A stretch of 32,462 bases of DNA from a virus. The DNA is taken from UHGV virus genome UHGV-0221239; one strand, 5' to 3'. Every line of letters starts with the position of its first letter. The first letter of the stretch is position 1. The notes under the pieces are model-generated. The model did no database searches, was not told the DNA's origin, and was given only the letters and a program-made list of their open reading frames with translations. Shown here in pieces: positions 31,789 to 32,426 of this stretch. A program made the translations under genes and the position numbers.

Positions 31789-31815
31789 TCCTGCTTTTAC
31801 TTGGGGGGATTTAAC

Positions 31816-31923
31816 ATGCTTATTAGCTATGTACGCGTATCAATAAATGACCAGAACACAGATCTACAACGTAATGCGTTGAACTGTGCAGGATGCGAGC
31901 TGATTTTTGAAGACAAAATCTAA
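31816..31923 (+). pseudogene. pin: DNA invertase (Gin/Pin/Hin serine recombinase family), first 35 codons only
   Basis: [35 protein letters not shown] matches the invertase N-terminus (Gin: [34 protein letters not shown]..., from memory), including the catalytic Ser region; a stop follows directly after the inverted repeat. Confidence 0.75.
31835..31916. repeat. Inverted repeat gamma, copy 1 (82 bp perfect; invertase codons 7-34); partner at 32245-32326
   Basis: gcgtatcaataaatgaccagaacacagatctacaacgtaatgcgttgaactgtgcaggatgcgagctgatttttgaagacaa is the exact reverse complement of 32245-32326. Confidence 0.9.
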
Positions 31924-32142
31924 CTTTGCTTAACCTTAGCGTAAACCGTTCCGTTCAGAATGCTGTATTTCTGAAAAAACGTGATGCTCTCATCGTCCAC
32001 ACCAATCTACGACTGAACATACCACTTATACTTAAGGATAAATGGGATGAGAGTGAAATACTGGAGCGAGGTAAAAAGTTGGGGGAAATTGCATTGAAAG
32101 TATGGCCAAAATACGATTAATGCAATTAATAAAATGATTATA

Positions 32143-32166
32143 GCGGCCTTACATTAGTAAGGCCGC
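32143..32166. other. Perfect 9-bp-stem palindrome (gcggcctta-cattag-taaggccgc)
   Basis: Seen directly; overlaps the stop codon of the minus-strand ORF 32154-32426; no adjacent T-run on either strand. Confidence 0.5.
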
Positions 32167-32426
32167 AACTCACTATTAAATCCTTTAATTTGCATCAAGA
32201 ACAGCACTGTCAGCCCTAGGCTCTCGGACTTTGTACCGCTTATCTTGTCTTCAAAAATCAGCTCGCATCCTGCACAGTTCAACGCATTACGTTGTAGATC
32301 TGTGTTCTGGTCATTTATTGATACGCTCGCTTGTTGCCGTTTCCTTACCAGTAGCTGTTCAGGGGTAAGATCGGTTCCAGACAGAACAATTTGGTTCATT
32401 ACCGTAGCATCTGAATTTGTCACCAT
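32154..32426 (-). pseudogene. Chimeric ORF: unrelated N-terminus + repeat-encoded invertase residues 8-34 + ISGTKSE..., then loss of invertase similarity
   Basis: [90 protein letters not shown]; invertases continue ...RPGLKRAL..., so the gene is degenerate after about residue 45. Confidence 0.5.
32245..32326. repeat. Inverted repeat gamma, copy 2
   Basis: Reverse complement of 31835-31916; boundaries cross-checked against codon positions of ORF 32154-32426. Confidence 0.9.

Follow-up and report, generated by a model that had tools for sequence, protein, structure and literature searches.

Gene content at the right end of the window

The DNA analysed here, referred to as the window, is a stretch of 32,462 nucleotides whose right end carries a glycine-rich fibre cassette, the truncated 5' end of a Pin-family invertase gene (pin') and part of a gmrSD gene on the minus strand, with a block of 82 bp from the invertase gene repeated in inverted orientation. 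The features of this end, given with the corresponding positions in locus L001 of strain AST240, are as follows.

31816..31923, plus strand: pin' open reading frame (ORF), PinE codons 1-34, then Ile and a stop codon created at junction J6
31835..31916, plus strand: left repeat arm, pin codons 7-34 in their original place; equals L001 6736-6817
31916..31917: junction J6, where the reverse complement of L001 7146 follows L001 6817 with 1 nt of microhomology
31917..32120, plus strand: inverted 3' end of gmrSD, codons 563-629 and stop codon; 100% identical to the AST240 gene
32143..32166: G+C-rich stem-loop inside the inverted segment, 10-bp stem and 4-nt loop, as read from the sequence
32154..32244, minus strand: rest of the reference pin' ORF, codons 35-63 and stop codon, SGTKSE followed by non-invertase residues; now split from its 5' end
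32245..32326, minus strand: right repeat arm, the additional and inverted pin codons 7-34, which continue in frame from gmrSD codon 557
32326..32327: junction J7, where L001 7160 follows the reverse complement of L001 6736 without microhomology
32327..32462, minus strand: gmrSD body, approximately codons 513-557; 100% identical to L001 7160-7295; the gene extends beyond the right end of the window

Starting from the ATG at 31816, the pin' ORF covers 35 codons, with its stop codon at 31921-31923, and contains the N-terminal catalytic-serine motif YxRVS (as YVRVS). It matches Pfam Resolvase (PF00239) with an E-value of 6.5e-5 (23.5 bits vs. a cutoff of 23.3; profile positions 2-40 of 145) and is 94% identical to residues 1-35 of intact PinE (tblastn, E-value 3.6e-18), both matches agreeing with an earlier note on this DNA, which had described a convincing invertase N-terminus at 31816 stopping just past the repeat. 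The inverted copy is 86% identical to PinE residues 8-49 (tblastn, E-value 1e-19). When the whole 32-kb window was searched with PinE, no invertase-like sequence was found beyond these two pin fragments. A complete invertase (ca. 180-190 aa, with a resolvase catalytic domain and a C-terminal helix-turn-helix) is absent from the window and, as had been proposed, no functional invertase is encoded there, only PinE residues 1-35 and 8-49 being found.

The reference allele

In AST240 L001, the gene order is tail fibre, tail-fibre assembly gene, glycine-rich domain gene (minus strand) and a recombinase annotated as lacking its C-terminus, then a DUF262 gene, which is intact (629 aa, minus strand) and followed by an icd' fragment marking the right attachment site of e14. 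At the equivalent place, another genome (L002) has an intact pinE, then a different cargo gene. A further reference (L005), chosen by its identical glycine-rich protein, has the normal arrangement and is more diverged than AST240.

The 629-aa protein of AST240 contains Pfam GmrSD_N (residues 8-256) and GmrSD_C (residues 451-619), and matches the PADLOC mREase_IV model (Type IV methyl-directed restriction) with 1523 bits (629/629); its sole relative of solved structure is a DUF262 protein. Members of the GmrSD family are Type IV modification-dependent restriction enzymes combining DUF262 and DUF1524, with BrxU and SspE among their relatives. In the reference allele, GmrSD is the cargo of the e14 right end, at the place where K-12 has mcrA.

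A megablast search with positions 31100-32462 against 5426 complete E. coli genomes showed that some of them cover the region as two pieces on opposite strands, while the window's own arrangement was present in none. The pin'-gmrSD junction of the reference (L001 6690-7320) is collinear in 298 of the 5426 genomes, the best 23 of these 298 all being 100% identical. The ancestral allele is the right end of an e14-type prophage, kept in about 5% of complete E. coli genomes, and consists of the glycine-rich fibre cassette, a pix site, a pin gene cut at about codon 41 (63-aa ORF) and a convergent, intact gmrSD. Similarity of the reference pin' to PinE stops at about residue 49 by tblastn and at about codon 41 at the DNA level, and truncated Pin products of 63 to 75 aa are on record from hundreds of contigs.

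These data correct the view that the invertase had been reduced in the lineage of the window: since the 63-aa stump beside the GmrSD gene is a common allele, present in those 298 genomes, invertase loss is common and older than the window's rearrangement, which cut the stump from 63 to 35 codons. As for the minus-strand ORF, which had been reported to continue as ISGTKSE and then to lose its invertase similarity, the continuation is indeed seen, and the ORF consists of the gmrSD body, its codons up to 557 leading into the inverted pin copy. By homology with the reference allele, gmrSD and not an invertase should follow to the right of the window.

The 411-bp inversion and its products

Aligned by BLAST to AST240 L001, the end of the window is tiled exactly, with two pieces preceding the gmrSD body:

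30826-31916, forward: collinear piece, L001 5727-6817
31916-32326, reverse complement: inverted piece of 411 bp, L001 7146 down to 6736, 411/411 identical

The inverted block reaches from pin codon 7 to gmrSD codon 562 and has staggered breakpoints: on the left, 82 bp were doubled (L001 6736-6817) and, on the right, 13 bp were lost (L001 7147-7159). A repeat search of the window gave inverted arms of 85 nt at 31835-31919 and 32242-32326 (99% identity), in which the exactly duplicated block is 82 bp long (31835-31916 vs. 32245-32326, no mismatch), the first mismatch being met at 31917/32244 on leaving this block. The coordinates of the 82-bp inverted duplication of invertase codons 7-34, as given in the earlier note, are thereby confirmed. 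A perfect inverted repeat of 82 bp cannot have arisen by chance in 32 kb, and the identity of the arms indicates a recent event.

The 328-bp spacer between the arms corresponds to the inverted intergenic stem-loop and the last 67 codons of gmrSD, as also reflected by the ORF at 31926-32120, which matches Pfam GmrSD_C (E-value 2e-6, profile positions 86-137 of 138). In the reference allele, the stem-loop is located between the convergent gmrSD and pin' ends; it was not scored as a terminator because it has no T run, and no promoter or terminator was called in 31600-32462.

The coding consequences were obtained by simulating the different states. The reference state gives a gmrSD product of 629 aa and a pin product of 63 aa. 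In the window state, gmrSD is split within its C-terminal nuclease domain and its predicted product of 614 aa consists of GmrSD residues 1-557 and 57 pin-derived residues, alongside a pin product of 35 aa; loss of enzyme activity is predicted. Once the segment between the arms is flipped, the products are 586 and 63 aa, respectively, the latter being the size (ca. 63 aa) previously anticipated for a flipped spacer. Recombination by RecA between the arms would thus remake the 63-aa stump but not gmrSD. A flip restoring gmrSD in frame with a 23-codon insert (82 - 13 = 69 bp) was also considered and rejected: in the simulation, translation stops after the pin-derived peptide, at 586 aa. The net change is +68 bp, not 69, because one base is shared at the junction.

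Crossover sites and candidate enhancer

Upstream of the repeat, the window contains the 1.97-kb P segment, with an inverted 26-bp site having an AAACC-NN-GGTTT core at each boundary. These sites and the candidate enhancer are the following.

29786..29811, minus strand: pix-like 26-bp crossover site at the left end of the P segment, in the tail-fibre gene, TTCTCCCAAACCAAGGTTTTCGAGAG
31735..31760, plus strand: pix-like 26-bp crossover site at the right end of the P segment, in the 5' part of the glycine-rich fibre cassette, TTCTCCCAAACCAACGTTTATGAAAA
31837..31900: candidate Fis enhancer interval, placed by position from G-N13-C 15-mers and comparison with Hin; mirror copy at 32261-32324

The consensus TTCTCCCAAACCAASGTTT has exactly two matches in the window (29793-29811 and 31735-31753), inverted and without mismatch, vs. 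0.01 expected, and the two 26-bp sites share 21 of 26 positions. Alignments to genomes with a flipped P segment, such as MDR_56, end at window position 31753; in MDR_56, the whole inter-site segment is reversed, the glycine-rich cassette being attached to the constant part of the tail fibre, and adjoins an identical pin stump and gmrSD. The sites at 29786-29811 and 31735-31760 are true Pin crossover sites, and this exact site pair is a small by-product of the analysis. The 27-bp spacer at 31789-31815, once thought to resemble a degenerate crossover site, matches at only 10 of 26 positions, a score equalled by 63% of random 27-mers.

Since the P segment occurs in both orientations among truncated-pin genomes, either a recombinase acts in trans or inversion took place before truncation. 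Any inversion of the P segment needs a recombinase supplied in trans, in line with the previous proposal that inversion would need such a recombinase or RecA.

The Hin enhancer, 65 bp long and bounded by two Fis sites, is located about 100 bp from hix (PMC3798978). The equivalent looked for was an element of about 65 bp, with end Fis sites spaced by about 48 bp centre to centre, at about 100 bp from a crossover site and within the 5' end of the invertase gene; a literature search for the coordinates of the Pin enhancer turned up the Hin figures alone. The arm contains only two G-N13-C 15-mers, at 31837-31851 and 31886-31900, which are 49 bp apart and lie about 96 and 145 bp from the centre of the crossover site, although this motif is too degenerate to serve as a test for Fis sites. 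By analogy with Hin, the repeat probably holds the whole candidate enhancer equivalent. The suggestion that the repeat may duplicate a Fis enhancer stands as regards position, which fits Hin, but not as regards design: the repeat results from an inversion whose breakpoints are staggered and is not a designed enhancer duplication, the enhancer equivalent being inside it because the breakpoints happened to fall there.

Whether the arms, or the duplicated candidate enhancer, could allow RecA or a Pin-family invertase supplied in trans to toggle the 328-bp segment and turn gmrSD or pin on and off was also considered. Such a switch would be in keeping with a gene end flanked by inverted repeats, with an arm covering the positional equivalent of the Hin enhancer, with the trans action known for Pin-family invertases of other prophages and with the two orientations of the neighbouring P segment among dead-pin genomes. 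However, no AAACC-NN-GGTTT site was found in or beside the 82-bp arms, the only two in the window being those that bound the P segment; neither orientation provides an intact gmrSD (586 or 614 vs. 629 aa, the nuclease domain being split) or an intact invertase (35 or 63 aa); and the locus exists without the duplication in 298 genomes and with it in none. Nor was any family of loci having the same duplicated arms, in several lineages and in both orientations, found in the collections searched. A functional switch is extremely improbable: the repeat was left behind by a rearrangement and is neither a device nor a working genetic switch, and the locus is not a new kind of invertase system.

Sister events in the last 6.8 kb

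Window positions 1-25626 correspond to a lambdoid prophage of the DLP12 locus, which ends within the Q antiterminator gene. Over these 25.6 kb, the window aligns collinearly to strain PK5074 and shows 23 mismatches but not a single indel. Eight pieces of e14-type DNA make up the remainder. Those preceding the three pieces described above are listed here with the matching positions in L001 or in a further reference, L003.

25624..26064, minus strand: sister inversion of 441 bp, yfdQ/yfdR piece, L003 4087 to 3647, with an 87-bp inverted duplication; located at the lambdoid/e14 join
26062-29422, forward: e14 piece, L003 4001-7361
29417-29973, forward: e14 piece after a 28 kb jump (deletion), L001 3099-3655
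29969..30356, minus strand: sister inversion of 388 bp, tail-fibre C-terminus, L001 4007 to 3620, with inverted end duplications of 36 and 74 bp
30356-30833, forward: e14 piece, L001 3934-4411

The last of these and the next piece (30826-31916) are continuous in the window, AST240 carrying IS1414 between their L001 equivalents. The three inverted pieces (441, 388 and 411 bp) are all of one form, each with inverted duplications (36-87 bp), and together with the two long-range joins they all lie inside the last 6.8 kb, i.e. the last 21% of the window, the last junction being 136 bp from its end. The seven junctions show, in order, 3, 0, 3, 1, 1, 1 and 0 nt of strict microhomology. The presence of similar scars in yfdQ and in the tail fibre argues for accident rather than for the design of a switch.

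The sister event at 29938-30429 shows crossed duplications of the type X Y Z X' Y'. This bears on a two-step origin in vivo, in which an 82-nt snap-back copy of pin codons 7-34 would have been inserted into gmrSD in inverted orientation, replacing 14 bp, and RecA-dependent recombination between the two arms would then have flipped the 328-bp spacer. An 82-bp perfect homology suffices for RecA recombination, as the minimal length in E. coli is below 82 bp; the segment may then still flip at low frequency, and the 'flipped' isomer would be a simple insertion allele. The sequence alone cannot tell the origins of the two isomers apart. Nonetheless, two events are invoked where one is enough, the crossed duplications at 29938-30429 fit a single staggered inversion and not an insertion followed by a flip, and neither isomer was seen in the collections searched, so that this sequence of events is very unlikely.

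The inverted yfdQ piece has a best match of 99.1% among the 5426 genomes. It differs from its closest alleles at 4 positions in 441 bp, vs. 1-2 in the adjacent 3361 bp. Two natural variants and two private changes make up these four differences, one of which sets the two arms apart. This is suggestive of error-prone copying or of thin read support, there being too few sites to decide.

Occurrence in sequence collections

Junctions J6 and J3 were each searched for in GTDB representative genomes, IMG/VR and JGI metagenomes, and J7 and J1 in IMG/VR, without any occurrence. Taken together, the 5426 complete E. coli genomes, GTDB, IMG/VR, JGI and the INPHARED phages contain none of the scanned junctions J6, J7 and J3. 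At the protein level, an exact look-up of the junction-spanning ORFs (the 215-aa YfdQ chimera, the 170-aa truncated fibre and the 35-aa pin') found none on record, and a comparison of the 90-aa GmrSD::Pin fusion ORF with 5.8 billion protein clusters returned no match spanning both halves. Likewise, the duplicated arms were found in neither orientation in complete E. coli genomes, vs. 298 genomes with the unduplicated locus.

An arrangement found in no collection searched could be an artefact, the host having the ordinary pin'-gmrSD allele and the inversions having been made by chimeric molecules or by the mis-oriented concatenation of short contigs. We regard this as a serious possibility, although short of an even chance. 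Strand-displacement amplification and polymerase template switching during library preparation are possible sources. Overlapping pieces joined with the middle one reversed would give exactly a duplication at the overlap and a deletion at the gap. The inverted sizes are nearly constant, two long-range joins occur in the same 6.8 kb and the record stops 136 bp past the last junction. Moreover, the differences in the yfdQ piece, including the one that splits its arms, are as expected from thin support.

Several observations speak against an artefact. Overlaps of 0-3 nt are impossible from de Bruijn graph traversal, so real molecules must have been read, and the overlaps of 82, 36, 74 and 87 bp do not correspond to one fixed k. 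As AST240-type genomes have the 82-bp block only once, it is not a repeat-induced contig boundary. Random ligation chimeras would not unite three pieces of one 500 bp and would be expected across the 32 kb, yet all events are in the last 21%, the remaining window being a clean consensus without indels.

A proposed origin by inverted template switching

Our best reading, held with about even confidence, is a near-reciprocal inversion produced in vivo by two inverted template switches. In starving E. coli, inversions of 1.5 and 2.4 kb described as 'almost but not quite reciprocal', with indels of a few tens of bp, have been reported (Lin et al. 2011, PMC3161906). They were explained by two inverted switches within one replication fork of ca. 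1.5 kb. According to the same study (Lin et al. 2011, PMC3161906), such events occur together in a subpopulation of cells marked by general structural instability.

Applied to the window, the origin step, which we infer to be template switching, would be a single one: a nascent strand would switch to an inverted template twice in one replication fork, being copied forward to L001 6817, then back on the other strand from 7146 to 6736, and forward again from 7160. The two sister inversions and both long-range joins would probably date from the same occasion, in a cell whose replication was associated with a break or with stress. The equivalents among human structural variants are known as dupINVdup and dupINVdel.

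This reading is supported by the segment being 411/411 identical to its parent, with two novel offset junctions, an 82-bp duplication and a 13-bp deletion; by microhomology of 0-3 nt at 7 of 7 junctions; and by inverted pieces (388-441 bp) smaller than the fork dimension of ca. 1.5 kb, with duplications and deletions of 13-87 bp. The clustering of seven junctions in e14-derived DNA beside a clean 25.6 kb is better accounted for by one clustered event than by random chimeras. Against this reading, the arrangement is unique to the window in all the collections searched, and J6 and J7, with 0-1 nt of microhomology, offer little for polymerase priming. An artefact could likewise show seven junctions within 6.8 kb, the last of them 136 bp from the window's end, and inverted pieces of similar size resembling library fragments. 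In addition, a large chromosomal rearrangement is implied by the joining of the lambdoid Q gene to e14.

A broader proposal is that all seven junctions (three inversions, the 28-kb deletion and the Q/e14 fusion) come from one MMBIR or chromoanasynthesis-like accident in a natural E. coli. We consider this tentative and on balance unlikely. If true, a Type IV restriction gene, a tail fibre, yfdQ and two prophages would all have been knocked out in a single accident, a wild-type counterpart of events known until now chiefly from laboratory starvation assays and human genomic disorders.

Implications

The 82-bp repeat, situated at the common pin-stump/gmrSD junction, was left by a rearrangement of a known class or is an artefact resembling such a scar, and the finding is ordinary in either case. 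For annotation purposes, the locus is to be read as a dead pin stump next to a disrupted GmrSD defence gene, and not as a novel invertase arrangement or switch. If genuine, it provides a natural case, resolved to the base pair, of a prophage with clustered, near-reciprocal inversions of the kind ascribed to template switching, and illustrates one route to the knockout of prophage defence cargo and tail-fibre genes. If an artefact, the last 6.8 kb of the record are unreliable.

Comparison with known systems

The locus resembles the e14 Pin system and the Din family (Pin, Gin, Cin, Hin) by its e14-type right end and the YVRVS of its Pin N-terminus, by the inverted 26-bp sites flanking a 1.97-kb segment of alternative tail-fibre C-termini, and by a candidate enhancer interval at about 100 bp from the nearer site. 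It differs in that only a stump of the invertase gene is left (35 codons in the window and 63 in the parent allele), so that the system has no recombinase of its own, and in that the 82-bp repeat is unrelated to the crossover sites.

Concerning the GmrSD family, the AST240 allele is a full-length member with both GmrSD_N and GmrSD_C in one polypeptide. In contrast, the two domains are not complete in one polypeptide in the window, where the gene is broken after codon 557, in GmrSD_C, and its last 67 codons lie inverted 200-400 bp away.

With strand-displacement chimeras and mis-oriented draft contigs, the window shares a local forward-reverse-forward order, overlaps and gaps at the joins, and its occurrence in one record only. 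Unlike them, it has a clean consensus elsewhere and clustered events, and each piece regains the original strand within a few bases of where it was left.

Finally, the likeness to the inversions of Lin et al. 2011 (PMC3161906) lies in a short segment with offset junctions and tens of bp duplicated or deleted at its ends, in non-homologous joins with little microhomology, in a fork-sized scale and in the secondary events found alongside. The differences are of size (0.39-0.44 kb here vs. 1.5-2.4 kb), of microhomology (0-3 nt here vs. 2 or more) and of context, as the window combines three clustered events with two long-range joins and is known from one sequence record alone.

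Rearrangements in the prophage and the tail-fibre gene

Besides the inversion of the 411-bp segment at pin'/gmrSD, a second inversion, a third inverted piece and a large deletion were located in the window:

29938-30429: second inversion, of the same form as the pin'/gmrSD one; the 388-bp segment carries the tail-fibre C-terminus (collar-domain cassette)
25624-26148: third inverted piece, 441 bp, with an inverted duplication of 87 bp; it comprises the C-terminus of yfdQ and the beginning of yfdR
29417-29422: 28-kb deletion, in which every e14 gene for replication, head and tail is lost

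The tail-fibre inversion is flanked by duplications of 36 bp at one end and 74 bp at the other, giving the arrangement X Y Z X' Y'. The inversion shortens the fibre gene to 170 codons, and a 5' fragment of tfa ends up on the wrong strand. At the deletion junction, which has a microhomology of 3 nt, the first two codons of ymfL (GTG start included) are fused to the final ~29 codons of ymfQ, so that the early rightward operon now leads directly into the tail-fibre gene. This ymfL/ymfQ junction was absent from every collection searched.

The yfdQ/yfdR piece sits exactly where the lambdoid (DLP12-locus) prophage meets e14-type DNA, the lambdoid prophage being broken within its Q antiterminator gene at this join. 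Four substitutions distinguish the piece from every one of 5426 genomes, of which two correspond to other natural alleles and two are private.

Elsewhere in the lambdoid prophage, an intact OmpC/NmpC-type porin gene (365 aa, 24046-25143) is flanked by the lysis genes on one side and by Q on the other. The nearby Rz region carries an IS3-family insertion in the closest reference strain, PK5074, and is without it in the window.

P segment inversion

The 1.97-kb P segment (29786-31760), located between two pix-like sites (Pin crossover sites), was compared with positions 2092-4438 of the MDR_56 locus (L011). Both of its orientations are present among genomes with identical truncated pin and gmrSD, which implies either that an invertase provided in trans flipped the segment or that the flip preceded the truncation of pin. 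In place of a collar-type fibre, one of the alternative fibre C-termini consists of a protein with a glycine-rich domain (Pfam Gly_rich_2), and the region of this cassette is overlapped by an additional reading frame:

30936-31364, minus strand: 142-codon ORF overlapping the 3' portion of the region that holds the glycine-rich cassette

RefSeq lists its product as hypothetical (115 aa in E. coli AST240); it is possibly the partner that assembles or chaperones the glycine-rich tip of the fibre.

Cargo at the e14 right end

From about codon 41 onward, pin is replaced by the GmrSD cassette. The defence-type cargo beside pin at the e14 right end varies by strain (window 31816-32462, compared with the truncated-pin AST240 locus, L001, and a locus with intact pinE, L002): GmrSD is found in AST240 and 297 other complete genomes, a LEM-3-like GIY-YIG nuclease accompanies intact pinE in LR-62-2, and in K-12 the cargo is mcrA.
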